DNA of 37,739 nt from Pseudomonadales bacterium (GTDB lineage: Bacteria; Pseudomonadota; Gammaproteobacteria; Pseudomonadales; UBA5518). This document shows positions 56 through 25,531 of this stretch, piece by piece. How positions within the stretch are numbered: position 1 is the first letter of the stretch; each line of letters starts with the position of its first letter. The stretch lies in assembly GCA_018057015.1 (NCBI GenBank), contig JAGPES010000002.1, positions 1 through 37,739 on the forward strand, read 5' to 3'. A model generated the notes under the pieces. It made no database searches. It was not told the DNA's origin and saw only the letters and a list, made by a program, of their open reading frames with translations. The translations under genes and the position numbers were made by a program.

Positions 56-127
56 TCCCCGATAGCTCAATGGTAGAGCACCCGGCTGTTAACCGGGTTG
101 TTGTAGGTTCGAGTCCTACTCGGGGAG
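56..127 (+). tRNA. tRNA-Asn (anticodon GTT)
   Basis: Manual cloverleaf. Acceptor TCCCCGA/TCGGGGA (56-62/120-126). D arm GCTC-AATGGTA-GAGC. Anticodon arm CCCGG-CTGTTAA-CCGGG with GTT at 88-90. Variable loop TTGTT. T arm GTAGG-TTCGAGT-CCTAC. Discriminator G127. CCA is not encoded. Confidence 0.9.
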
Positions 128-1624
128 CTTTTTGTGCCAGTCCTCGAACCGTCGCGCGTTCGGTAACGCGTACCAGACCTCGACGGTTCGGCGGTCGTGG
201 ATGAGCACCTTCTTCACCAGCCGGTGGAGGAGGTGCTTCTTTTGTGGGACCGGGGCCTCCGCCAGGACCTCCTCGAAGTTGTCCACCAGGGCGGCGAGCA
301 TGTCCCGGTCGATCGCGGGTAGTTCCAGCCGCTCCCTCCGGACCTCCAGGTCCCGCCGTTCCGTTTCCAACGCCTCCATCCGCCCCTGGAGGTCGGCGAC
401 CTTCTGGTTGCAGAGCTCGGCCTTCAACGTGCCGGCCTCGAACGCCTCGAAGTAGCGCTCGACCGACGCCCGGACCTTGGCGGCCTCCGCCTCCACGCGG
501 GCGATCTCCTTTTCCAGGTCGGGTTTCTCAGCGCCCAATCGTCGGTTGGCCTCTTCCCAAACGCGGGCCATGAAATCCTCGTCGCGGAACATCGCCTTGA
601 TGTCCTGGACGATCGCCGACTCGAGCAACTCGGCCCGGACGTAGTCCTGCTTGCACGCGTGGTCGTTGAAGCGCTTCGAGCAGACGTAGTACGGGATGTA
701 GCGCCCGTTCTTCTGTCCGCCGCCGCCGAACATGTGCGAGTTGCACAGGCCGCACTTGATGACGCCGGTGAGCAGGCGTTCGTCGCCGTTGTGCCACTGG
801 CGGCCCTTCAGATCTTCATGCCGGTCGTCAAGGACCTCGCGCGCCTTCTCGAAGAGCACGTCGGAGACGATCGGGTCGTGCTTCCCCTCGTAGAGCACCT
901 CGCGCCAGCGAATCTTCCCGACGTAGGCCGGGTTCTTGAGCATGTAGAGGACGACGCGCCGGCCCCACTTCCGGCCATTGCGGTTCCGTAGGCCGGCGTC
1001 GTTGAGCTTCGTGCAGATCGTGGACGCACCCTCGCGGCCCAGCGCGTACATCGTGAACATCTTGCGGACGATCAGCGCCTCTTCCTCGTGGATCACGAGG
1101 TGCTTGTCGTCGTCGAGCCGGTAGCCGTACGGGACGTTGCCCCCGACGTAATTGCCGGTCTTGGCTTTCCGCTCGAGGCCGACGCGCGTCCGCTCGACGA
1201 TCGTCGCGTGCTCAAACTCGGCGAAGACACCCAGCATCTGGAGCATCATCTTGCCGGCGGCGTTGGACGTGTCGAACGGCTCGGTGATGCTCTTCAGCGT
1301 GACGCCGTTCTTCGTGAGCTCGTCCACCATCAGGGCGAGCTCGCGGACTTTGCGGGACAGGCGGTCGACGCGGAACACCAGGAGCACGTCGAAGGCCCGC
1401 GCTTCGGCGTCGAAGAGCATCTCCTCGAGGCCGGGCCGGTTCATGTGCGTGCCCGATTCGGTGTCGCGGTAGAGCTTGTGGAGCGTCCAGTCGTCGTCGT
1501 ACTGGGCCTTACAGAAGGCCTCCAGGCGGTCCTTCTGCGCGTCCAACGAGTATCTCTGGTGGTCCTCGTCGGTGCTGATCCGGGTGTAGAACGCGACCCG
1601 TGGCACGGTTCGGAGCGCTCCCAT
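116..1624 (-). CDS. Large serine recombinase (prophage integrase)
   Basis: N-terminal resolvase-type catalytic motif VAFYTRISTDEDHQRYSLDAQ. Recombinase domain, zinc ribbon (CGLCNSHMF...YYVCSKRFNDHAC) and C-terminal coiled coil. The track ORF extends to 1729, but the extra 35 codons have visibly lower GC3 and no SD. I prefer the ATG at 1624 (MGALRTVPRVAFYTRIS). The stop at 116-118 overlaps the tRNA 3' end. Confidence 0.9.
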   Translation of the reverse strand: MGALRTVPRVAFYTRISTDEDHQRYSLDAQKDRLEAFCKAQYDDDWTLHKLYRDTESGTHMNRPGLEEMLFDAEARAFDVLLVFRVDRLSRKVRELALMVDELTKNGVTLKSITEPFDTSNAAGKMMLQMLGVFAEFEHATIVERTRVGLERKAKTGNYVGGNVPYGYRLDDDKHLVIHEEEALIVRKMFTMYALGREGASTICTKLNDAGLRNRNGRKWGRRVVLYMLKNPAYVGKIRWREVLYEGKHDPIVSDVLFEKAREVLDDRHEDLKGRQWHNGDERLLTGVIKCGLCNSHMFGGGGQKNGRYIPYYVCSKRFNDHACKQDYVRAELLESAIVQDIKAMFRDEDFMARVWEEANRRLGAEKPDLEKEIARVEAEAAKVRASVERYFEAFEAGTLKAELCNQKVADLQGRMEALETERRDLEVRRERLELPAIDRDMLAALVDNFEEVLAEAPVPQKKHLLHRLVKKVLIHDRRTVEVWYALPNARRFEDWHKKLPE

Positions 1625-1782
1625 CGTATTGCCGCCGCATGTTTTACGCGCGTCGGCACGGACCACACCCTTGCTCGTCTTGCGCCCGGAATCAAGGCCA
1701 TTTGGCGCCGGTTTGGCGGCAGTTTTCATGAATGGGAAAGGCCGGTTCAGACGCGTTGTCGGGGACCGGAATCCGGCCTGTC

Positions 1783-1880: not shown

Positions 1881-2759
1881 GTGCTGGACAACGGAAGCGT
1901 CCGGCCGGTTGCGGCCACCAGAGTGAAGCACGTGACGACGGAATCTACGAGCTTTCAGCCCGACACACGGGTGCTCGACAAGTTCATCCGCTGGATCGAA
2001 CGATTCGACCAGCACCACGCCCGCGCTTGGGCGCACCGGTACAAGGCTGATCCAGAGGCAGCCACCTGCGAGTCCATGTTCTGGGGCGTTCTCGCCGACT
2101 GCGGGGTCTCGGTCGAGCCCAATACGAATCCGACCGGTCAGAAGAAGGCCCCCGACTTCGTCTGCCGGAAGGGCGACCGTAAATTCTACGTCGAAGTCAC
2201 GTGCATACGCACCGATACCGCGACCGAGCACAGCGCACTCCCGCCCGTCTTCACCGAGGGAGCGCGGAACTACCGCCCGCTCAACGACGCGATCTTCGCG
2301 GAAGTGACCTCGAAGACGCCACAGTGCGCGAACCTCGACGCGCCATGTGTCCTCGCTGTTGGCACGTTTCATTATCACGCTTCCGTCTCCTGCATCCGGA
2401 AGACGTTCGTCGAGTGGCTGCTGACTGGGGAGACCAGCATCTCTTGGTACTTCGACCCGCGCCGCGGTGAGGCGGTCGGCAAACCGTTTCAATCGACAAA
2501 GTTGAAGTCCGCTACATTCCTGAAGCCCAGCCCGCTCGTCGGCGTCGAGCCCGCTCGGAAGCCGATCTCGGCGCTCGTGGTTGCAGGATTCGGCTGCAAA
2601 CCGCCGCACGTGTACGGAGTGCTTCATCCACGCCCGGCGCGCGAGTTTGAGGCGGAGCTTCTCGATCGAATCCCATTCTGCCGCGTGAAGTACGACATCC
2701 GCGCCGCATCAATCACGACCGAATGGACGCAGGACCCCGATCAGGAGACAGCGAAATGA
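1881..2759 (+). CDS. Hypothetical protein with a PD-(D/E)xK-like nuclease signature (non-canonical third residue)
   Basis: High GC3 in this frame, whereas the antisense 311-aa ORF is R/G/A/V-rich shadow. Motif ..EAATCESMF..KKAPDFVCRKGDRKFYVEVTCI fits E...PD...(E)x(T), a restriction-endonuclease-like layout with Thr in place of Lys. The start is uncertain: GTG at 1881, 1923 or 1932, none with a strong SD. Confidence 0.6.
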   Translation: MLDNGSVRPVAATRVKHVTTESTSFQPDTRVLDKFIRWIERFDQHHARAWAHRYKADPEAATCESMFWGVLADCGVSVEPNTNPTGQKKAPDFVCRKGDRKFYVEVTCIRTDTATEHSALPPVFTEGARNYRPLNDAIFAEVTSKTPQCANLDAPCVLAVGTFHYHASVSCIRKTFVEWLLTGETSISWYFDPRRGEAVGKPFQSTKLKSATFLKPSPLVGVEPARKPISALVVAGFGCKPPHVYGVLHPRPAREFEAELLDRIPFCRVKYDIRAASITTEWTQDPDQETAK

Positions 2760-17237: not shown

Positions 17238-17573
17238 TCAGCCTGTGCCCGGTTGGTTCGGAGGTGAAGGATGGAGCGACGAGAAGATGGGGCCAAGTTC
17301 ATGATCAACTTTGAGACAGAGGCTGGCGTCTTTCGAGCCGCATTCCGGACAGAAATGGAAGTGTTTCCCAACGTCCTCGCCGTCTCGCCATGTGCGCACT
17401 TGATACTCCAGCGTGCACATCTGGCACTTGAACCAAAGCACGCGATGTCCATCAACATGGCTCTTCGTAGCGAGCTGACGAGCGGTAGTGTCATCCCAGG
17501 GGCACAACGGCGGGAGCGGCGGCACCTTGAGTTCTTCCACTTTCATCCGTTTGCGTTCGTATCGCTTCGCCAT
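17238..17573 (-). CDS. Small basic zinc-ribbon protein (hypothetical), antisense to its neighbours
   Basis: KCQMC...(x23)...CPECG zinc ribbon. Lys/Arg-rich N-terminus MAKRYERKRMK. AAGGG lies about 7 nt before the ATG at 17573. The region has lower GC than the flanks, and GC3 is only moderate, so the coding call is tentative. Confidence 0.5.
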   Translation of the reverse strand: MAKRYERKRMKVEELKVPPLPPLCPWDDTTARQLATKSHVDGHRVLWFKCQMCTLEYQVRTWRDGEDVGKHFHFCPECGSKDASLCLKVDHELGPIFSSLHPSPPNQPGTG

Positions 17574-17700
17574 GATCCAGCCCTTCGTTTATTCGCGTGG
17601 GACAGATGCGACTCATTATCCGCACAAGCCATGGGCTCGGTCCAGCGAGATTCTGTACCCGCTGTGACTGTGAGATCAACGACATGGAGGTCATGGGAAA

Positions 17701-19119
17701 ATGAACCTTGAGTTGCGGCCGCTGGCCGAGATCAAACCGTATCACAGGAACCCGCGCGACAACGATGCGGCGGTGGACGCGGTAGCCGAGTCGATCCGGC
17801 GGTTTGGATTTCGCCAGCCGATCGTGGTCGACGCGGACGGCGTCATCGTCTGCGGGCACACGCGCTGGAAGGCAGCGCAGAAGCTCGGGCTCGAGCAGGT
17901 GCCGGTGCATGTCGCCCGCGACCTGACGCCCGAGCAAATTCGCGCGTACAGGATTGCCGACAACAAGACCGCCGAGCTGGCCGAGTGGAACCTGGAGCTG
18001 CTGCCGATCGAACTGGCGGAACTCCAGGGCGCCGGCATCGATTGGTCGCTGCTTGGGTTCGACGCCGACGAGCTGGCGAAACTGCTCGACCCGGGCGTGA
18101 AGGAAGGTCTGACCGACCCGGATGACATTCCCGAGCCGCCGGACGAGGCCATCACGAAACCCGGCGATCTGATCGTCCTCGGCGATCACCGGCTGCTCTG
18201 CGGCGACAGCGGCTCGGCGGCTGATGTGGACCGACTGATCGATGGTCAGCCAATCCACCTGGTCAACACCGATCCGCCGTACAACGTGAAAGTCGAGCCG
18301 CGCAGCAACAACGCGATCGCCGCGGGACTGTCGTCATTCGCTGGGACGCACAAAGGCGTGAAGGCGCTGGACGCGCAGGGCCTGCACCACAGCGGCTTCG
18401 ACGTGGCCCGCGGCAAGACTGGCATCAAGCACCATCAGAAGCTCGACCTGGAGCGGCACCCGGAGAAGGCGAAGGCCACGCATCGGAAGATGCGCGCCAA
18501 GGACCGTCCGCTGGCGAACGACTTCGTGTCGGACGAGGAGTTCGACCGGCTGCTGCGCGCCTGGTTCGGCAACATCGCCCGCGTGCTGCTGCCCGGACGA
18601 GCGCTGTACTGCTGGGGCGGCTACGCGAACTGCGCGAACTACCCGCCCGTGCTGAAGGTTTGCGGGCTGTACTTTTCGCAGGCGATCATCTGGGTCAAGG
18701 AGCATCCGGTCCTCACGCGCAAAGACTTCATGGGCAACCATGAATGGTGTTTCTACTGCTGGCGCGAAGGCGCGGCGCACGTCTACCTCGGGCCAAATAA
18801 CGCGACCGATGTGTGGTCCGTCAAGAAGGTCAATCCACAGAGCATGGTGCATTTGACGGAAAAGCCCGTCGAGCTGGCGGTGCGCGCCATGCAGTACTCG
18901 TCGCGCGCGGGTGAGAACGTGTTAGACCTGTTCGGCGGCAGCGGCTCGACGCTGATCGCGGCGGAGCAGACCGGCCGGCGCGCGTTTCTGATGGAACTCG
19001 ACCCGCTCTACTGCGATGTCATCGTCCAGCGGTGGGAGAAGTTCACAGGGCTGAAGGCGGAGCGGATCACGGACCGTGAGAACGCCCCGGTTGTGGCCGA
19101 GGCGTCCGTGGAGGGCTGA
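17701..19119 (+). CDS. ParB-like N-terminal domain fused to a beta-class DNA methyltransferase (probably N6-adenine)
   Basis: ParB/Srx-type N-terminus (IKPYHRNPRDNDAAVDAVAESIRRFGFRQPIVVD...VCGHTRWKAA). Motif IV NTDPPYN lies upstream of motif I LDLFGGSGSTLIAAEQTGRRAFLMELDPLY. GGAGG lies before the ATG at 17701. Confidence 0.9.
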   Translation: MNLELRPLAEIKPYHRNPRDNDAAVDAVAESIRRFGFRQPIVVDADGVIVCGHTRWKAAQKLGLEQVPVHVARDLTPEQIRAYRIADNKTAELAEWNLELLPIELAELQGAGIDWSLLGFDADELAKLLDPGVKEGLTDPDDIPEPPDEAITKPGDLIVLGDHRLLCGDSGSAADVDRLIDGQPIHLVNTDPPYNVKVEPRSNNAIAAGLSSFAGTHKGVKALDAQGLHHSGFDVARGKTGIKHHQKLDLERHPEKAKATHRKMRAKDRPLANDFVSDEEFDRLLRAWFGNIARVLLPGRALYCWGGYANCANYPPVLKVCGLYFSQAIIWVKEHPVLTRKDFMGNHEWCFYCWREGAAHVYLGPNNATDVWSVKKVNPQSMVHLTEKPVELAVRAMQYSSRAGENVLDLFGGSGSTLIAAEQTGRRAFLMELDPLYCDVIVQRWEKFTGLKAERITDRENAPVVAEASVEG

Positions 19120-19137
19120 GATGCGTCGTAGGCAGCG

Positions 19138-19377
19138 CTATGACAGGTCGGGCTGCGACTCCTCGGCGGGCAGGTCGGGTACGACCAGGATCGTGACGGG
19201 GTACTCGATGGGCTGGTCCCATTCGTTCACCCCGATCAGCGCGCGGGCCTTGATCACCGGCCCGATGGCCTGCGTGTCGACCACGCGCGGCTCGCGGAAG
19301 GTCAGGTCGCCCATCATGGTCTGCGACAGCATCGTGTGCAGGCCGTCCAGGATGTGGGAGTGTACTTCAGTCGTCAT
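19138..19377 (-). CDS. Hypothetical protein (79 aa), last gene of the antisense operon
   Basis: GGAG lies 7 nt before the ATG at 19377, which overlaps the upstream stop by 11 nt. High GC3. The stop is only 18 bp from the convergent methylase stop. Confidence 0.6.
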   Translation of the reverse strand: MTTEVHSHILDGLHTMLSQTMMGDLTFREPRVVDTQAIGPVIKARALIGVNEWDQPIEYPVTILVVPDLPAEESQPDLS

Positions 19378-19765
19378 CGCGGTTCTCCTTTGCGGAAACG
19401 TGGTTGGCTCCGGCTTCCTCGGCCAGAGCGAAAAACTCTGTCATCGCGTCCAGGTGGACGCTGCACGTGGCGGCGTAGTTCCGCCGGTAGCGGACGTCGA
19501 GGATGCTGCGCTCGCGCAGAAATGCGAGCGCGACCGCGACGTTCGTGAACGTGACGTCGCGGCCGGCGTTGCGCTCGTAGGTGACGAGCGCCTCCAGCGT
19601 GAAGCCGGTTTCGCCGAGCTCGTCGGCCGCATGGGCGATCTGCTCGAACGCGGCCCGCGGGCAGCGGTGCTCGTACGGCTGCCCGCGGACCGGCACGACC
19701 TTGCGGACCAGGTGGTGGCCCAGGACCTCGAAGGTCTCCTCGCGCTGGGAGATGGTCGCGGCCAC
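19367..19765 (-). CDS. Hypothetical protein (132 aa)
   Basis: GTG start at 19765 lies 8 nt after GGAGG. Natural amino-acid composition. No motif recognised. Confidence 0.6.
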   Translation of the reverse strand: MAATISQREETFEVLGHHLVRKVVPVRGQPYEHRCPRAAFEQIAHAADELGETGFTLEALVTYERNAGRDVTFTNVAVALAFLRERSILDVRYRRNYAATCSVHLDAMTEFFALAEEAGANHVSAKENRDDD

Positions 19766-19768
19766 GAG

Positions 19769-20377
19769 CTACACCTCCACCGCGACGGCGGCGCTGGCGA
19801 ACTGCCCGCGCTCGACTTTGCGGAACCGGGCCGCGTCGCCCTTCGTGGCCATCTCGCGGATGATCGCGGCGTACAGCGTGGCCTCGGGCGTCTTGCCGCC
19901 GGGGCTCGACCACAACCCACGCTCGGCCATCGCGTCGATCATCTCCTTGGCCCGCATCGGCTGGCCAGCATCGGCCAGGACCTGGGCCGCGGCGTCCAGC
20001 GCGCTGACCCGCTTGGGCTTCGGTTCGGCGGCGGGCTTGCGCGTGCGGGTCTTCTTCTCGGGCACCGGCTGGCCGGTGATGACCTCGACGTTCGGGTTGA
20101 CCTCGGGCTCCGCGGCCTCCGCGCGAGCGGCGGTGATGCCCTGATCGGCGGGCGTGACCTCCGCGCTGGCCTTCTTCGAGCGCCGGTTCGCCGGCGCCTC
20201 GTCGCCCACCGCCCGCCGCAGGCGCTGGGCGCTCTTGATGCGGATGCGCTTGCCCGTGGCGGTGTTCGTCGCGTTCCACCCTCCATGCGTGTTGGTGCTG
20301 TCGATCCGCACCGTCACGATGCGGTCGCTCACTTTGGCGCTGTACGCGTGTCCGATCTTGATCTCGTCCTTCTTCAT
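19769..20377 (-). CDS. HARE-HTH domain protein with an N-terminal small beta domain and a Lys/Pro/Ala-rich linker
   Basis: The C-terminus VSALDAAAQVLADAGQPMRAKEMIDAMAERGLWSSPGGKTPEATLYAAIIREM...RFRKVERGQFA matches the HARE-HTH (RpoE-delta/ASXL/restriction-enzyme N-terminal) pattern from memory. AAGGAG lies 6 nt before the ATG at 20377. Confidence 0.65.
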   Translation of the reverse strand: MKKDEIKIGHAYSAKVSDRIVTVRIDSTNTHGGWNATNTATGKRIRIKSAQRLRRAVGDEAPANRRSKKASAEVTPADQGITAARAEAAEPEVNPNVEVITGQPVPEKKTRTRKPAAEPKPKRVSALDAAAQVLADAGQPMRAKEMIDAMAERGLWSSPGGKTPEATLYAAIIREMATKGDAARFRKVERGQFASAAVAVEV

Positions 20378-20458
20378 GGCCGTCTCCTTATGTGTTTGGC
20401 CTCGTCAGGCCCGGGTCTCCAGCGCCCGGGCGACCCGCCGGAGCGGGTTTCGGCGGCT

Positions 20459-20788
20459 TCAGGCGAGCAGGTCGTCATACGCCTCGAGCTTGGTCAGCGC
20501 GGCCTGGACGTCGTCCCACAGGCTGGTGCGCAGCCAGACCAGCGCCATGTGGGCGTCCTTCGTGTTCTCCGCGCTCTCGATCCGGCCGATGGCCTCGCTG
20601 AGCTTGTCGCGGAGCCAGGTCATGTCCTCGTGGGCCTTCAGCGCGATGTACGCGGCCTTGACCGCGAGGTCCGCCTTGCGGCCGTCGTCGGTCGCTTCGC
20701 CGACGTTGCCGGCCTGGTGCGCGGCGATGCGGTTGGCGAGTGCTCGCTCGACGATCGGCAGCGTCTTTTCGTTCTTTTTCGCTGGCAT
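20459..20788 (-). CDS. Hypothetical helical protein (109 aa)
   Basis: GGAGGAG lies 6 nt before the ATG at 20788. High GC3. Confidence 0.6.
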   Translation of the reverse strand: MPAKKNEKTLPIVERALANRIAAHQAGNVGEATDDGRKADLAVKAAYIALKAHEDMTWLRDKLSEAIGRIESAENTKDAHMALVWLRTSLWDDVQAALTKLEAYDDLLA

Positions 20789-20803
20789 GGTGCTCTCCTC
20801 CGG

Positions 20804-21028
20804 TTAGTTGACGGGAACCGTGATGATGCGGTGCGTACCGTCCGGCATCTCGTGGTCGCACACGTACGCGAACTCGACGCCCGCGGCGGCCAGGCGGTCG
20901 ATCTCAGCCTGCTCGGCGACGTAGTTCTTGCCGCCAAGCAGAATCGCCTCGCCCTTGCCGCTGGCGTGCGTCCACTGGATGGCCTCGTGGGCCGTCGGGA
21001 ACTCGATTGCCTTGAACTCGATGCTCAT
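20804..21028 (-). CDS. Hypothetical protein (74 aa)
   Basis: AGAGG lies 7 nt before the ATG at 21028. The gaps to both neighbours are 15 bp. Confidence 0.6.
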   Translation of the reverse strand: MSIEFKAIEFPTAHEAIQWTHASGKGEAILLGGKNYVAEQAEIDRLAAAGVEFAYVCDHEMPDGTHRIITVPVN

Positions 21029-21043
21029 TGGTGTGCCTCTGCG

Positions 21044-21385
21044 CTACTTGGCGTAAATGGTCTCGGCCAGGCCGGCCGCCAGGACGTCGACGATCGCGGC
21101 GGCCAGCGGCGTGGTCGGACGGATGTCCCAGCCGCGGTCGAAATTCGCGGCCGTCGTTTGCGTGTCGAGCTGCTTGAGCCAGAGCTTCGAGATGCGGCTG
21201 TCGCCCAACTCGAAATCCGGCGACTCGGCGTGCTCGGGGAAGACCAGGGCGTCGAAGCGGTGCCCGGCGATCGTGCCGACCACCCAGGACCCGCCGCAGC
21301 TCGTGCGGCGCTGAACCTTCGTGATCCGCAGCGTTTCCAGGATCTCGCTGGCGTCCGGCGTCTGGTTCGTGTCGTTCGTCGTCAT
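21044..21385 (-). CDS. Hypothetical protein (113 aa)
   Basis: AAGGAG lies 8 nt before the ATG at 21385. High GC3. Confidence 0.6.
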   Translation of the reverse strand: MTTNDTNQTPDASEILETLRITKVQRRTSCGGSWVVGTIAGHRFDALVFPEHAESPDFELGDSRISKLWLKQLDTQTTAANFDRGWDIRPTTPLAAAIVDVLAAGLAETIYAK

Positions 21386-21412
21386 CGGCGTTGCTCCTTT
21401 GCGTTGCGACAG

Positions 21413-21778
21413 TCACATCAGTTCGCTGCTTTTCGCCGGGAATCCACTCGGGTGGCCGGAATTCTGCGATTTCTCAGCAGAATCTGCGGCAGGTCCGAGT
21501 GCGCTCTCGGGCGCGGCGGGAACCCGCCTTTCGCCCGCGCTGAGCATGGCGACCAGCGCGTCCAGCCCGGCACCGCGGTCGTGGGCGCCGTCCTGGTAGC
21601 CCTGCGTGTAGGCCTGCAGGAGCGCGCGGCGGACCTGCGGCCCGTAGACCTCGTGGAAATCGAGCCGGTCCAGGCCGCGGCGCTCGAGCGTTTCGATCCC
21701 CAGGCGGCCGTGGGCGATGCCGGCCAGCAGCGCCTCGATCCGGGCGGGCGTGGTCGTCTTTGTCTTGCGCTTCGACAT
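21413..21778 (-). CDS. Hypothetical protein (121 aa) with a GIETLERRGLDRLDFHEV motif
   Basis: GGAGG lies 7 nt before the ATG at 21778. The TLExRxxDxLDFHEV-type motif resembles a small domain I recall from plasmid/ICE/phage accessory genes; this is unverified. Confidence 0.6.
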   Translation of the reverse strand: MSKRKTKTTTPARIEALLAGIAHGRLGIETLERRGLDRLDFHEVYGPQVRRALLQAYTQGYQDGAHDRGAGLDALVAMLSAGERRVPAAPESALGPAADSAEKSQNSGHPSGFPAKSSELM

Positions 21779-21808
21779 GGTCCTACCTCCGTTGGGTGTG
21801 CGGGGCGC

Positions 21809-22042
21809 TCACCAGCCCTCGATCTCCCGGATCACCCGGCCCGTGAGCAGCGGAATGGACCGGCCGTCGGGCGTGATGGCGTACAGGCTGGCCCCCGTAC
21901 GAGCCGCCGCGCGCCAGGCGGCGTTGAACGCGGTGCTGTGGCTGCGGAAGGTCCGCGTGTCGCCCGTGATGCGGTAGCCCCCCTCGATCTTTCGGATGCT
22001 GATCCGTGTGGTCCGCTTCGTCATGTTGCGTTTCGTGGTCAT
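21809..22042 (-). CDS. Hypothetical basic protein (77 aa)
   Basis: GAGGAG lies 8 nt before the ATG at 22042. The track start at 22060 lacks an SD. Confidence 0.55.
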   Translation of the reverse strand: MTTKRNMTKRTTRISIRKIEGGYRITGDTRTFRSHSTAFNAAWRAAARTGASLYAITPDGRSIPLLTGRVIREIEGW

Positions 22043-22072
22043 CGGAATTGCTCCTCGCATTGGTTTGGGGGG

Positions 22073-22273
22073 TTACGCCGGCGTGGGGACGAACAGTTCG
22101 CCGACCTCCCAGATCTCACGCCCGTAGGCGGTGTCGACCAGGTACGACCAGGCGTCGACGCCGTTGCGGCGGAAGGTGCAGACTCGGACGATCTGGCCGG
22201 GCTCGCCGTCTTCGCGGCTGACCACCAGGGTCCCGGGCGTCAGGCGGCGGTTGGTTTTCGTGGTCGCGTTCAT
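22073..22273 (-). CDS. Hypothetical protein (66 aa), first gene of the antisense operon
   Basis: GGAG lies 8 nt before the ATG at 22273 (MNATTKTNRR...). The longer track ORF, which runs to 22342, lacks an SD. Confidence 0.55.
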   Translation of the reverse strand: MNATTKTNRRLTPGTLVVSREDGEPGQIVRVCTFRRNGVDAWSYLVDTAYGREIWEVGELFVPTPA

Positions 22274-22417
22274 CGTCGTTTCTCCATCGCGTACGCCCCA
22301 TGCGTACAGACACATGAGTCGCTCGTTTTCCGGGGAAAGCAAGGCGATCGGGCGAGGAATTCGAGATATTCTTGCATGTCTTGGCGCCAGGTCCGAGTCG
22401 GCGGCCCGCCGGGCGCT

Positions 22418-22429
22418 GAGAGCGCTCTC
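22418..22429. promoter_or_regulatory. Perfect 12-bp palindrome GAGAGCGCTCTC in the divergent gap (operator or cos-related candidate)
   Basis: Read directly from the sequence. It lies in the roughly 250-bp gap between the antisense operon start (22273) and the small terminase start (22528). An 8-bp-stem hairpin GGCCGCCC/GGGCGGCC (22481-22508) follows it. Confidence 0.4.
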
Positions 22430-22527
22430 GCCCGCATCCGGGCGGCCTGGACCCGATACTCGTTACATACGCCGCCCCGGGGCCGCCCTGTCGGACCCGG
22501 GGGCGGCCGTGGGCGGGAGGCGGCGTG

Positions 22528-22737
22528 ATGGCCGGCGCCGAGGCCAAGCTGAACCCCACGGCGCTCCCCGTGGCGGAGGCGGCCCGGCTGCTCTCCGCCG
22601 TGGGCGGGCAGGCCGTCACGGTCGAGATGCTGGAGGCCGACGTCGCGGCTGGCGCGCCGACCAACGCCGATGGCACGCTCAACTTGGTCCACTACGCGGC
22701 GTGGCTCGTACGGGAGATGGCTTCCGGTGCCGATTGA
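22528..22737 (+). CDS. Nu1-like winged-HTH small terminase / packaging DNA-recognition protein
   Basis: LPVAEAARLLS...VTVEMLEADVAAGAPTNADGTLNLVHYAAWLVRE parallels the N-terminal pattern of lambda Nu1 (HTH ... GMPV...G...YD.AAVIKWY). GGGAGG lies 8 nt before the ATG at 22528. It sits immediately upstream of the large terminase. Confidence 0.55.
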   Translation: MAGAEAKLNPTALPVAEAARLLSAVGGQAVTVEMLEADVAAGAPTNADGTLNLVHYAAWLVREMASGAD

Positions 22738-25030
22738 CCCGCGCAAACTGAAGCCAACGGAACTGGTCCGGCTGCTCAACAGCACGCCGCTCGGTGAGGT
22801 CATCTCCGAGCGGCAGTTGCACCGGCACCGCGCGCGGGCGGGTTTTCGCATCGGTGACGGCCGCACCCTCGACCTGCTGCGCTACGTGGCATGGCTGACG
22901 ATCGAACGCCACCGGCCGCGGCCCGAGGCGGACGGACTTACCGGCTACGAGGCGCACAAGGAGCGCGCCGCGCAGCGCAACCGCGAGATGGCGCTGCTGG
23001 GCCGAGACATCGCCACGGGTGAGTGGGTCCACGCGCCGCGGAACCCGGAGCAGCGCATCCGGGCCGAACGCAACTTCCGCCACTTCTGCGAGGTGTATTT
23101 TCCGCAGACCTTTCACCTGCCGTGGTCGCCTGACCACCTGAAGGTGATCGCGAAGATCGAGCAGGCTGTTCTGGAAGGCGGGCTGTTCGCGATGGCGATG
23201 CCGCGCGGGTCGGGAAAGACCAGCCTCTGTGAAGTCGCCTGCCTGTGGGCGCTGGTGTATGGGCACCGGGAGTTTGTCGCGCTGATCGGCAGCGACGAGG
23301 AGCACGCCGCCGGCATGCTCGACAGTATCAAGGTCGAGCTGGAATCGAACGACCTACTCGAGGACGACTTCTCGGAGGTGGTCGGCCCCGTACGGGCGCT
23401 GGAGGGCATCCATCAGCGGGCAGCCGGGCAGATCTACCGCGGCAAGCAGACGCACATCGGCTGGACGGCGCGCGAGATCGTGCTGCCCACGTTGCCGCCG
23501 CTGGAATGGCTGGGGAACCACTCGCCGCGGTCCAACGGCGCAATCGTCTGCGTGGCCGGCATCACGGGGCGTATCCGCGGCATGAAGCACAAGCGCGCGG
23601 ACGGGAGCAGCGTCCGGCCGTCGCTCGTGCTGATCGACGATCCGCAGACGGACGAGTCCGCACGGTCGCCGTCGCAGTGCATGACGCGCGAACGCATCCT
23701 GGCCGGCGCGATTCTGGGGCTGGCGGGCCCGGGACGTAAGATCGCTGGCCTGATGACGCTGACGGTCGTGCGCCCGGACGACCTGGCCGACCGCATCCTG
23801 GATCGCGAGAAGCACCCCCAATGGCAGGGCGAACGGACAAAGATGGTCTATGCCTGGCCCACGGACGAAGCGCTGTGGGCCCGCTACGCCGAATTGTGGC
23901 GACTGGGTATGCAGGCCGACCGCGGGATCGCTGAGGCGACCGAGTTCTACCGCGCCAATCGGGAGGCGATGGACGCCGGCGCTCTCATCGCCTGGCCGGA
24001 ACGGCATCATCCCGATGAGCTTTCCGCCATCCAGCACGCGATGAACCTCAAGCTCGACCGGGGCGAGGCGGCGTTCTGGGCGGAGTACCAGAACGAGCCG
24101 CTGCCTGAGGAGCAGGTCGATGACGAGCTGCTCACGGTCGACCAGATTCTGGCGAAGCTCAACGGTCAGCGCCGGGGCGAAGTGCCGCTGGCGGCCACGC
24201 ACGTGACCATGTTCGTCGACGTGCAGGCGAAAGCCCTCTTCTGGCTCGTCGCCGCGTGGGAGAACGACTTCAGCGGCTACGTCCTCGACTACGGGACCGA
24301 GCCGGATCAGAAGGCGGAGTATTTCACGCTGCGTGACATTCGGCGCACGCTGGGAGCCGCCGCACCGCGGGCCGGGATCGAGGGGGCGATCTACGCGGGG
24401 CTGGAGCGGTTGACGGAGCGCACGCTCGCGCGCGAGTGGCAACGCGACGACGGGGCGCAGGTGCGGATCGACCGCTGTCTGATCGACGCGAACTGGGGCC
24501 AGTCGTCGGACGTCGTGTACCAGTTCTGCAGACAGAGCAAGTTCGCTGGCGTCGTGCTGCCCAGCCACGGCCGCTATGTCGGCGCGTCGTCCATCCCGTT
24601 CAGCGAGTACAAGCGGAAACGCGGCGACCGCGTGGGGCTGAACTGGCGCATCCCGGTGGTCACCGGCCGGCGCACTGTCCGCCACGTCGTGTTCGACACG
24701 AACTACTGGAAGTCGTTCATCCAGGCCCGCCTGGCGGTGCCGATGGGTGATCCGGGCTGCCTGTCCCTGTTTGGTCGGCAACCAGAACGCCATCGCCTGC
24801 TCGCGGAGCACCTGACCAGCGAGTACCGCGTCAAGACCGAGGGGCGAGGCCGCACGGTCGATGAGTGGAAGCTGCGGGTCGACGGCCTCGACAACCACTG
24901 GCTGGACTGCCTGGTCGGCTGTGCCGTCGCGGCGTCGATGGGTGGTGCGGCGCCACCGGGACTGGTCGGTGAGGTGTCTAGGCCGCGGCAGGTGGTGCGG
25001 CTATCGGAGTTGCGGAGGGCCCGACAGTGA
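22727..25030 (+). CDS. Terminase large subunit with an N-terminal Nu1-like DNA-binding extension
   Basis: Walker A AMPRGSGKTSL. Walker B LVLIDDPQTDESA. C-terminal nuclease-like region (FVDVQ..., DNHWLDC). The N-terminus LKPTELVRLLNS...GRTLDLLRYVAWLTIE repeats the motif of the preceding gene. GTG 22727 is the preferred start; the track ATG at 22670 is also possible. Confidence 0.85.
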   Translation: MPIDPRKLKPTELVRLLNSTPLGEVISERQLHRHRARAGFRIGDGRTLDLLRYVAWLTIERHRPRPEADGLTGYEAHKERAAQRNREMALLGRDIATGEWVHAPRNPEQRIRAERNFRHFCEVYFPQTFHLPWSPDHLKVIAKIEQAVLEGGLFAMAMPRGSGKTSLCEVACLWALVYGHREFVALIGSDEEHAAGMLDSIKVELESNDLLEDDFSEVVGPVRALEGIHQRAAGQIYRGKQTHIGWTAREIVLPTLPPLEWLGNHSPRSNGAIVCVAGITGRIRGMKHKRADGSSVRPSLVLIDDPQTDESARSPSQCMTRERILAGAILGLAGPGRKIAGLMTLTVVRPDDLADRILDREKHPQWQGERTKMVYAWPTDEALWARYAELWRLGMQADRGIAEATEFYRANREAMDAGALIAWPERHHPDELSAIQHAMNLKLDRGEAAFWAEYQNEPLPEEQVDDELLTVDQILAKLNGQRRGEVPLAATHVTMFVDVQAKALFWLVAAWENDFSGYVLDYGTEPDQKAEYFTLRDIRRTLGAAAPRAGIEGAIYAGLERLTERTLAREWQRDDGAQVRIDRCLIDANWGQSSDVVYQFCRQSKFAGVVLPSHGRYVGASSIPFSEYKRKRGDRVGLNWRIPVVTGRRTVRHVVFDTNYWKSFIQARLAVPMGDPGCLSLFGRQPERHRLLAEHLTSEYRVKTEGRGRTVDEWKLRVDGLDNHWLDCLVGCAVAASMGGAAPPGLVGEVSRPRQVVRLSELRRARQ

Positions 25031-25209
25031 TCGTCACGGCCCCCGGAGACGCCAGTCGTGAGCGCCGCGGCATCGAGTGTCCGCGCTGCGGTTGCCGGCA
25101 TTTTCGCGTGATCTACACGCGCGCGGCCTGGGGGAACCGGATTATCCGACGGCGCGAGTGCCGGCATTGTGGGAAGCGGATCACAACCTACGAGCGTGCG
25201 GGTTCGTGA
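25027..25209 (+). CDS. Stand-alone zinc-ribbon protein resembling the NrdR N-terminal / Ogr-Delta zinc ribbon
   Basis: ECPRCGCRHFRVIYTR....IIRRRECRHCGKRITTYE parallels the NrdR zinc-ribbon consensus CPxC....V.DSR....IRRRRxCxxCxxRFTTxE. The GTG start overlaps the terminase stop as GTGA. Confidence 0.6.
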   Translation: MIVTAPGDASRERRGIECPRCGCRHFRVIYTRAAWGNRIIRRRECRHCGKRITTYERAGS

Positions 25210-25424: not shown

Positions 25425-25448
25425 GGCCTCGCCTCACCCGGCCGGTCT

Positions 25449-25519
25449 GGCGGGATGGTGTAACGGCAACATGCCGGCTTCATGCGCCGGCGCTGCGGGT
25501 TCAAGTCCCGCTCCCGCAA
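25449..25519 (+). tRNA. Phage-encoded tRNA with CAT anticodon (Met, or Ile2 if lysidine-modified)
   Basis: Manual cloverleaf. Acceptor GGCGGGA/TCCCGCA (6 bp plus a G1.A72 mismatch). T8 and G9 present. D arm GTGT-AACGGCA-ACAT. Anticodon arm CCGGC-TTCATGC-GCCGG with CAT at 25481-25483. Variable loop CGCT. T arm GCGGG-TTCAAGT-CCCGC. Discriminator A. Confidence 0.7.
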
Positions 25520-25531
25520 GTGGAGCACGCG

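Follow-up and report, generated by a model that had tools for sequence, protein, structure and literature searches.

Between the methylase and the packaging genes of a prophage, a compact block of nine small genes is read against both of these neighbors, which raises the question of what such a block is for and what holds its genes together. The block occupies positions 19138–22273 of contig JAGPES010000002.1, and the whole contig, 37,739 nucleotides, was analyzed and is referred to here as the window. Its genes lie on the minus strand and are numbered g1 to g9, transcription running from g9 to g1. An initial annotation had pictured a nine-gene system. Our results correct this picture, in that the conserved part consists of two genes, g6 and g3, and an RNA element.

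A hammerhead ribozyme between g4 and g3

The 81-bp gap between g4 and g3 had at first been noted as a gap only. When the DNA upstream of g3 homologues was aligned, the hammerhead cores CGAAA and CUGANGA were noticed together with compensatory stems, and the gap was found to hold the following element.

20390–20456, minus strand: type II hammerhead ribozyme (Rfam RF02276), predicted to be self-cleaving, in the sense orientation of the operon

RF02276 was matched over its full length (1–66 of 66) at 20455–20394 on the minus strand, with a score of 41.4 bits (E 2.9e-5), the gathering score being 37, and the gathering score was also passed in the relatives L001, L005, and L010. The catalytic core can be read directly from the sequence as CGAAA (20452–20448), GUC (20434–20432), and CUGACGA. 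It is framed by stem II (GCC/GGC), stem III (ACCCGC/GCGGGU), and stem I (GCCCGGG/CCCGGGC), the last being followed by CUGACGA. The ribozyme starts 3 bases past the stop codon of g4 and ends about 12 nt before the Shine-Dalgarno (SD) site of g3. Its minimum free energy fold is a three-way junction in which stems I and III are capped and stem II is open. Cleavage is predicted to occur after C20432, between C20432 and G20431 (GUC/G), 54 nt ahead of the start codon of g3. That the ribozyme is oriented in this way provides evidence for minus-strand transcription across the g4/g3 junction.

A covariance model of our own, R1, was built from 15 copies and used with a cut-off of E<1e-6. It identified 42 copies in Planctomycete loci, all of them on the sense strand of the operon, and zero copies in the Firmicutes loci sampled. 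Of the 42 aligned relatives, 41 retain the core, L007 being the one that deviates, and L135 carries a U just before GAAA; the H of the NUH triplet is C, A, or U. In the 42-copy alignment, double changes were seen in 11 of 16 pairs and 84% of the cells were paired, compared with 25–46% for slid partners. Stem III was 95% paired with double changes in five of its six pairs, and stem I had them in six of seven. An unfitted MAFFT alignment still gave double changes in four of the six stem III pairs. Pairing of loop I with the 3' tail was traced by eye as UGG/CCA in the window, GGUU/AACC in the type represented by L009, and UUG/CAA in L005, with some members that do not fit. At the level of sequence, these data demonstrate a bona fide hammerhead motif with covariation in the operon.

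The search with R1 found one ribozyme copy only in the window. A second weak model match at 1859–1924 (18.7 bits) was rejected as it had no CUGANGA core. Other ribozyme classes were not found in eleven Planctomycete loci, and no Rfam ribozyme of any kind was detected in ten Firmicutes-type or outlying loci.

Coupling of the ribozyme to g3

The gene downstream of the ribozyme, g3, encodes a protein with a HARE-HTH domain. Among 44 ribozyme hits, a tally that includes some loci duplicating the same phage, the next open reading frame (ORF) was the HARE-HTH gene in 39 cases, starting 10–30 nt after the ribozyme. The hammerhead also accompanies g3 in loci that have another gene before it. As far as these sequence comparisons reach, the hammerhead was shown to be tightly coupled to g3, an association for which no report was found in the searchable open-access literature.

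Two further observations concern the surroundings of these elements. A conserved pyrimidine-rich leader, AACCCCUGUUUYCCUUUUUCC, followed by AAGGAG, was present before the HARE-HTH gene in L008, L015, L093, L094, L101, L103, L122, and L136, in the position of the hammerhead, which this gene lacks there. Extra type II hammerheads were located in relatives with amidoligase/GATase cargo (L008, 6209–6293; L125, 10658–10736; L015, 8319–8394). The extra copy lies just past the amidoligase gene in L008 and L015, and downstream of it comes a GATase gene (L008, L125) or a small ORF (L015).

Conserved core and exchanged genes

The nine products and the flanking genes were surveyed for synteny by tblastn against 143 loci that had been fetched with g6 as query. 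The genes are listed below in the order of transcription, together with their GC content at third codon positions (GC3) where it is given singly, and with the number of loci in which a homologue was found.

22073–22273, minus strand: g9, 66 aa, GC3 0.91, SD GGAG; variable cassette in 17 of the 143 loci, no family match
21809–22042, minus strand: g8, 77 aa, very basic; variable cassette, 7 loci
21413–21778, minus strand: g7, 121 aa, DUF6900 (PF21841, E 2.7e-14) with a low-complexity tail; 18 loci
21044–21385, minus strand: g6, 113 aa, DUF7678 (PF24726, E 1.3e-16); conserved core gene and query of the survey
20804–21028, minus strand: g5, 74 aa, GC3 0.91; variable cassette in 24 loci, no family match
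20459–20788, minus strand: g4, 109 aa, GC3 0.93; variable cassette, 8 loci
19769–20377, minus strand: g3, 202 aa, HARE-HTH (PF05066, E 7e-12) at residues 127–194; core gene, 67 loci
19367–19765, minus strand: g2, 132 aa, GTG start; 13 loci
19138–19377, minus strand: g1, 79 aa, GC3 0.93, SD AAGGAG, overlapping g2 by 11 bp; rare cassette in 2 loci only, L085 and L106

The idea that the nine genes travel as a unit was contradicted by this survey: g6 and g3 alone recur across about 80 related prophage loci, and the other genes were found in 2–24 of the 143 loci. All Planctomycete loci that reach both flanks keep the methylase, a counter-oriented block, and the terminase. The interval between methyltransferase and terminase ranges from 1.2 kb, with g6 and g3 only (L014, L024), up to 5 kb (L001), and the minimal block consists of g6, the hammerhead, and g3. 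Breakpoints of DNA identity with relatives were mapped to 19418, 19785, 20389–20397, 20455, 20796–20808, 21031, 21403, 21780, 22077–22086, and 22270. They fall in short spacers except for 19418, about 40 bp past the g1/g2 overlap, and 19785, 16 bp inside the 3' end of g3. Clustering of all ORFs of the interval yielded many singletons, and the larger cargo carried by relatives at the same site comprises a Fic protein (Fic_N + Fic + HTH), an Amidoligase_2 protein, a class II GATase, and an HTH_17 protein. Because of this gene turnover, the breakpoints at gene boundaries, and the variable cargo, the locus is read as a cassette site with a conserved core. In the loci compared, the content of the block was shown to be mosaic, single-gene cassettes apparently being exchanged around that core.

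In contigs from three public runs labelled as metatranscriptomes, position 20344 was joined to 20825, a natural variant without g4 that is altered near the ribozyme.

The block had been proposed as a candidate multi-gene anti-defence or superinfection-exclusion locus, and such a dedicated system, whose expression from the prophage would not depend on the lytic programme, has to be weighed here. It would account for small, fast-exchanging genes beside a methyltransferase, in a block that is counter-oriented to the lytic genes and has its own conserved control region, and for the Fic and amidoligase/GATase genes at the same site in relatives. The gene ardA has moreover been found directly downstream of hammerheads in other bacteria (PMC3088659). 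The failure of the block genes to travel as a unit speaks against it, as do properties of the proteins that are described below.

Reading frames of the block

Nine minus-strand ORFs of 66–202 aa were confirmed. They follow each other from 5' to 3' along the operon at distances of 30, 30, 27, 15, 15, 81, and 3 bp, and then with an overlap of 11 bp. The start of g8 was corrected to the second ATG, at 22042, which lies behind GAGGAG and agrees with homologues of 77 aa. The GC3 described as high amounts to 0.84–0.95 across all nine genes, and GC1 exceeds GC2 in the usual way, with the lysine/threonine-rich g8 as the exception. Canonical SD sites had been assigned to every start; GGAG-type sites 5–9 nt upstream were found for eight genes, and g5 has a weak one (AGAGG). 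Homologues of all nine genes are present in related loci, and in each gene the third codon position takes 50–73% of the nucleotide differences to relatives. The third-position excess, the GC3, the SD sites, and the spacing indicate that the block genes are real and under purifying selection. The ORF of 1150 aa on the plus strand, dismissed earlier as a shadow, was indeed one, with a GC1 of 0.84, a GC3 of 0.68, and an inverted codon-position pattern.

Could the ORFs or the ribozyme nevertheless be chance features of GC-rich DNA, the long plus-strand ORF being real and the hammerhead spurious? Long shadow ORFs do arise in GC-rich DNA, and the score of RF02276 exceeds the gathering score by only 4 bits, with a weak z-score for the fold. 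The plus-strand ORF, however, has the wrong GC pattern over its codon positions, and the minus-strand frames have Pfam matches, hundreds of homologues, third-position bias, and cassette boundaries at their ends. The ribozyme core, for its part, is shared by 42 relatives, in which stems I and III vary in a compensatory manner and both the position and the sense orientation are constant. We give this explanation hardly any credence.

The borders of the block were largely as first described. The divergent gap to the terminase operon, estimated at about 250 bp, measured 251 bp (22274–22524), and the block ends 18 bp from the methylase stop, where a simple scan found no terminator-like site. The orientation had been described as opposed to that of all flanking phage genes. 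This is true of the methylase and the terminase; the integrase (116–1729) and a possible ORF at 17238–17573 are on the minus strand as well.

Proteins encoded by the block

Instead of the single recognizable domain that had been reported, three Pfam matches were obtained (HARE-HTH, DUF7678, and DUF6900). Scans of the nine products with PADLOC and NCBIfam gave zero matches, and across Pfam, PHROGs, PADLOC, NCBIfam, and the PDB no match of known function was found. Sequence searches of the PDB with profiles of g6 and g2 and with g3 gave nothing significant.

The g3 protein consists of a small N-terminal domain, a charged linker, and the C-terminal HARE-HTH domain, and is basic (isoelectric point (pI) 10.1); a look-up of the exact protein returned nothing on record. 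HARE-HTH has been proposed, without proof, as a reader of modified DNA (PMC4738411), and doubts were raised later (PMC11037411).

Structure prediction and Foldseek searches, recommended earlier for all nine proteins, were carried out for g6 and g2. The AlphaFold2 model of g6 (pLDDT 90, predicted local distance difference test) shows a beta-sheet and a C-terminal helix; no relative was found in the PDB (best E 0.15), and the sole match in BFVD was the uncharacterized gp67 of Bacillus phage G (TM 0.65). The model of g2 (pLDDT 88) has an N-terminal three-stranded sheet and a long C-terminal helix. Its top Foldseek neighbors were weak ones, winged-helix regulators of the MarR/PadR/MepR/Sso10a kind with probabilities of 0.9–0.99 and E-values of only 0.05–0.3, and judging by the model g2 is probably a winged-helix DNA-binding protein. 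Its 362 homologues are all unnamed. The pI of g8, computed on the 83-aa form, is about 12.

Besides DUF6900, g7 matches phrog_2555 (E 1.9e-12). A search for its homologues returned 12 close relatives with no informative architectures, and in some relatives of the prophage g7 is located downstream of g6. The DUF7678 family comprises 808 cluster representatives, all of them short, among which only one fusion was detected, DUF6900 + DUF7678 (P0329). Because this fusion keeps the order of g7 and g6, it suggests that the two proteins work together.

No clear membrane segment or signal-like region was recognized in the nine products. The maximum Kyte-Doolittle mean over 19 residues is at most 1.12 in eight of them and reaches a borderline 1.68 in the C-terminal helix of g6, a helix that the predicted model places against the sheet. 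Many exclusion proteins are located in the membrane or the envelope, and that no clear segment of this kind was recognized here argues against a role in exclusion. Neither was any known defence or anti-defence family matched (PADLOC, NCBIfam, Pfam, and PHROG, no dedicated anti-defence library being among them), and in Firmicutes phages g6 is read in the direction of the packaging genes. For these reasons, we regard a dedicated anti-defence or exclusion system of several genes as an unlikely explanation of the block. What stands of the earlier proposal is a separately oriented, co-directional operon of small proteins, mosaic in content, at a variable spot of the prophage, the nine-gene system itself being contradicted by the turnover. 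As a sequence arrangement, the locus fits an accessory-gene, possibly anti-defence, locus.

The prophage and its control region

The window begins with a tRNA-Asn gene, a minus-strand serine recombinase gene that overlaps it, and a LexA/S24-type repressor-like gene. These are followed by helicases, an AAA_24 ATPase, a VRR-NUC gene, a Toprim primase-like gene, the ParB-N6/N4 methyltransferase, and the nine-gene block. Past the block come a 70-aa ORF, a gpA-type large terminase, a tRNA-Met gene, a lambda-type portal, and capsid and tail genes. The features bordering the block are as follows.

17701–19119, plus strand: ParB N-terminal domain fused to an N6/N4 DNA methyltransferase (PF02195 + PF01555), convergent with the block
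22274–22524: divergent control region common to the block and the terminase operon, 251 bp, with conserved blocks in an alignment of 8 relatives
22525–22737, plus strand: 70-aa ORF at the position expected for a small terminase, assigned by position only; no Pfam family match
22670–25030, plus strand: gpA-type large terminase (PF20454, GpA_nuclease), divergent from the block, with synteny in relatives

In related prophages the ParB-methyltransferase also lies on the far side of the block, and its pairing with the terminase is kept. The closest genomic relatives of g6 are all contigs of Planctomycetota metagenome-assembled genomes (Phycisphaerae, Pirellulales, and others), and public runs containing the sequence are metagenomes of wastewater, sludge, and bioreactors. 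A blastn search of 17600–25100 against GenBank phages matched the methylase alone, and distantly, no close phage being found in GenBank.

The divergent region contains, within TCATGTGTCTGTACGCA, the inverted repeat GTACGC-N5-GCGTAC at 22291–22307, a repeat that occurs once only in the window, and also the palindrome GAGAGCGCTCTC at 22418–22429. Both TCATGTGTCTGTACGCA and GACTCGGAC are invariant in relatives, including L085, in which the first gene is a different one. A scan of the region for the sigma-70 consensus found no site, and a scan for the terminator consensus gave nothing useful. By their conservation, the blocks are candidate operator or leader elements. At 22475–22516 on the plus strand, the GC-rich inverted repeat GCCGCCCCGGGG ... 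CCCGGGGGCGGC directly precedes the first terminase-operon gene; it may form a hairpin in the RNA or be bound by a protein.

Some observations were made elsewhere in the prophage. The tRNA-Asn gene (GTT) lies at 56–128 on the plus strand at the start of the contig, its 3' end overlapped by the serine recombinase gene (116–1729, minus strand), and this end is probably the attachment side of the prophage. A 292-aa ORF without an NCBIfam match stands at 1881–2759 (plus strand), with the integrase on one side and the LexA/S24 repressor-like gene on the other. Its 'DFVC...YVEVT' motif recalls, by eye, restriction-endonuclease-like folds, and the ORF may be a prophage accessory gene. The segment 16806–17700, between the primase-like gene and the methylase, has a lower GC content of about 0.62; the possible 111-aa minus-strand ORF at 17238–17573 has CxxC motifs and a promoter-like site at 17644–17615, and nothing that corresponds to this ORF was seen in the 143 related loci. 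The tRNA-Met gene (CAT; 25448–25520, plus strand) is internal to the phage, with the large terminase before it and the portal operon after it, and tRNA genes occupy the matching position in L001, L005, and L088. The Pirellulales metagenome-assembled genome STL-PLA33 carries five prophage copies (L115, L116, L117, L120, and L123) on one 7.4-Mb contig, JAXMBJ010000006.1, all five with the g6-g3 core.

DUF7678 and the ParB-terminase locus in other phages

In more than 50 Firmicutes phage loci, the gene order is HNH, TerS, ParB-methylase, small genes (DUF5049, DUF3310, and others), DUF7678, TerL, and portal, an arrangement of the 'ParB-Tls' type described by Iyer and Aravind (PMC4738411). All of these genes are on one strand, and since DUF7678 is co-directional with the packaging genes there, the antisense orientation is no inherent property of the core. 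The DUF7678 gene of Faecalibacterium phage Roos is the last in a cluster of four small genes next to the integrase, and the link between DUF7678 and packaging, as judged from gene order, is frequent and not universal.

These loci bear on another explanation, according to which DUF7678, HARE-HTH, and DUF6900 would be working parts of a ParB-methyltransferase/terminase module of the lytic programme and would help in modifying, recognizing, or packaging phage DNA or in switching on the late genes. Its positional arguments are the constant ParB-methyltransferase/terminase position in about 60 Planctomycete prophages and the single-strand order of the Firmicutes loci, in which DUF7678 stands between the ParB-methylase and TerL. 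The proposed reading of modified DNA by HARE-HTH, the amidoligase/GATase genes in the same interval of relatives, and the guidance of DNA-modifying phage enzymes by their ParB partners (PMC13229309, PMC8256090) are in line with it. On the other hand, Pfam and PHROG scans detected no enzymatic or terminase-related domain in the block proteins, the block is on the opposite strand here, and DUF7678 of phage Roos is far from the annotated packaging genes. HARE-HTH was also not found in the Firmicutes loci by tblastn with g3 or in the single locus scanned with Pfam (L033). We consider the participation of the three proteins in such a module doubtful.

Proposed organization of the operon

The reading that we favor, and as a whole hold to be probable, is that the block sits in a temperate phage or prophage of Planctomycetota, at the ParB-methyltransferase/terminase junction, and forms one polycistronic operon made of a conserved core, the ribozyme, and exchangeable cassettes, with a transcript split by the ribozyme. 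The operon would be read from the conserved control region that it shares divergently with the terminase operon and would encode small cytoplasmic products. Its core layer would comprise g6, often with the DUF6900 gene g7, the type II hammerhead, and g3, followed here by the winged-helix-like g2. The cassette layer would consist of g9, g8, g5, g4, and g1, and partly of g7 and g2, which would recombine in and out at gene boundaries.

Cleavage would divide the transcript into g9–g4 and g3–g1. At its 3' end, the upstream piece would carry the stem III hairpin and a 2',3'-cyclic phosphate. A 5'-OH and the stem I hairpin would open the downstream piece, g3-g2-g1, in which the AUG of g3 would follow after 54 nt. 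By analogy with engineered ribozyme insulators, this constant 54-nt leader of g3 may insulate the DNA-binding genes from the upstream cargo, and the two halves of the transcript could differ in stability and translation. More speculatively, g3 and perhaps g2 may bind phage DNA and regulate the operon, and the cassettes may be host-interaction cargo that possibly includes anti-defence genes.

Several points weigh against this organization. As to the ribozyme, the z-score of its thermodynamic fold is only -1.37 in a GC-rich sequence, and the 42-copy covariation alignment was fitted to model R1. As to its role, five of the 44 hits precede something other than a HARE-HTH gene (GATase twice, small ORFs twice, and a 195-aa ORF). 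The hammerhead is missing in about half of 35 distinct g3 upstream regions, in several of which a CU-rich leader replaces it; cleavage is therefore not indispensable for g3. As to the proteins, DUF7678 and DUF6900 are families without assigned function, DUF7678 occurs beside the integrase in phage Roos, and the winged-helix assignment of g2 leans on weak Foldseek E-values (0.05 or worse). The binding targets envisaged for the regulators, the conserved inverted repeat or DNA marked by the neighboring methyltransferase, are pure inference. As to expression, contigs 88–95% alike and up to 23.8 kb long were obtained from four metatranscriptome runs; their depth was flat over the methylase, the block, and the structural genes, and such contigs can separate neither lysogenic from lytic expression nor RNA from carried-over DNA. 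The public RNA runs are of the metagenome type and contained 8–15% of the sequence words.

Going further, the hammerhead and HARE-HTH, with DUF7678/DUF6900, might constitute the marker and control unit of a new host-interaction or anti-defence cassette island, in which the ribozyme would insulate and HARE-HTH would tie expression to methylation by the ParB-methyltransferase. This extension is quite improbable in our estimation. In Planctomycetota phages, such a marker role would parallel that of aca genes, which mark acr loci.

Comparison with known systems

Why bacterial hammerhead and twister ribozymes accompany particular phage genes has been an open question since 2011 (PMC3088659, PMC6765202). 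The present prophage family is an unusually clean case, with one ribozyme per operon, mostly before the same DNA-binding gene, and cargo that turns over. It leads to testable predictions on cleavage, a fixed 5' leader, differential stability of the mRNA, and autoregulation. Foremost in usefulness among the new facts are the ribozyme, overlooked before, and the regularity with which it is paired with HARE-HTH at the ParB-methylase/terminase junction, and the variable cassettes are a place to seek anti-defence or host-takeover functions in the little-known phages of Planctomycetota.

The surroundings of the block resemble the ParB-Tls loci (PMC4738411; PMC8256090, PMC13229309), in which a ParB-domain protein fused or adjacent to a methyltransferase lies near the terminase with variable genes between them. 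In the window, ParB_N + N6_N4_Mtase at 17701–19119 lies near the gpA-type TerL at 22670–25030, and in its relatives an amidoligase and a GATase lie between the flanks. In contrast to the ParB-Tls loci, the intervening genes of the window encode small non-enzymatic proteins on the opposite strand, and the methyltransferase aside, the window has no DNA-hypermodification enzyme.

In acr-aca operons, short fast-exchanging genes stand behind one promoter and are followed by conserved helix-turn-helix genes. The cassette turnover around the conserved g3 resembles this picture, in layout only, and the inverted repeat of the control region is a possible operator. Unlike acr-aca operons, the block shows no homology to a known Acr, Aca, or anti-defence protein (no dedicated anti-defence library being included), its conserved genes include DUF7678, which is not a helix-turn-helix gene, and a ribozyme stands between the cargo and the helix-turn-helix genes.

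Engineered insulators use RiboJ-type hammerheads before a coding sequence. As in these, a hammerhead located directly upstream of the SD site and start codon would give a fixed 5' leader; the ribozyme of the window differs in being natural, of type II, and possibly provided with a pseudoknot, and its insulating role is suggested by the analogy.

The closest counterparts are the type II hammerheads that flank prophage genes and have been proposed to process long phage transcripts (PMC3088659, Perreault et al. 2011). The ribozyme described here shares with them the permuted architecture, the core of CUGANGA and GAAA, and the GUC site, and judging by eye its 3' tail may likewise pair with loop I. 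Like them, it lies between prophage genes of unknown function, where cutting into shorter mRNAs has been proposed. The block thus belongs to a known kind, the hammerhead-bearing prophage accessory operons. Whereas the hammerheads of that study occur as a pair flanking a gene, one is found per operon here, and in dozens of Planctomycetota prophages it is coupled to a HARE-HTH family located downstream, at the ParB-methylase/terminase junction.

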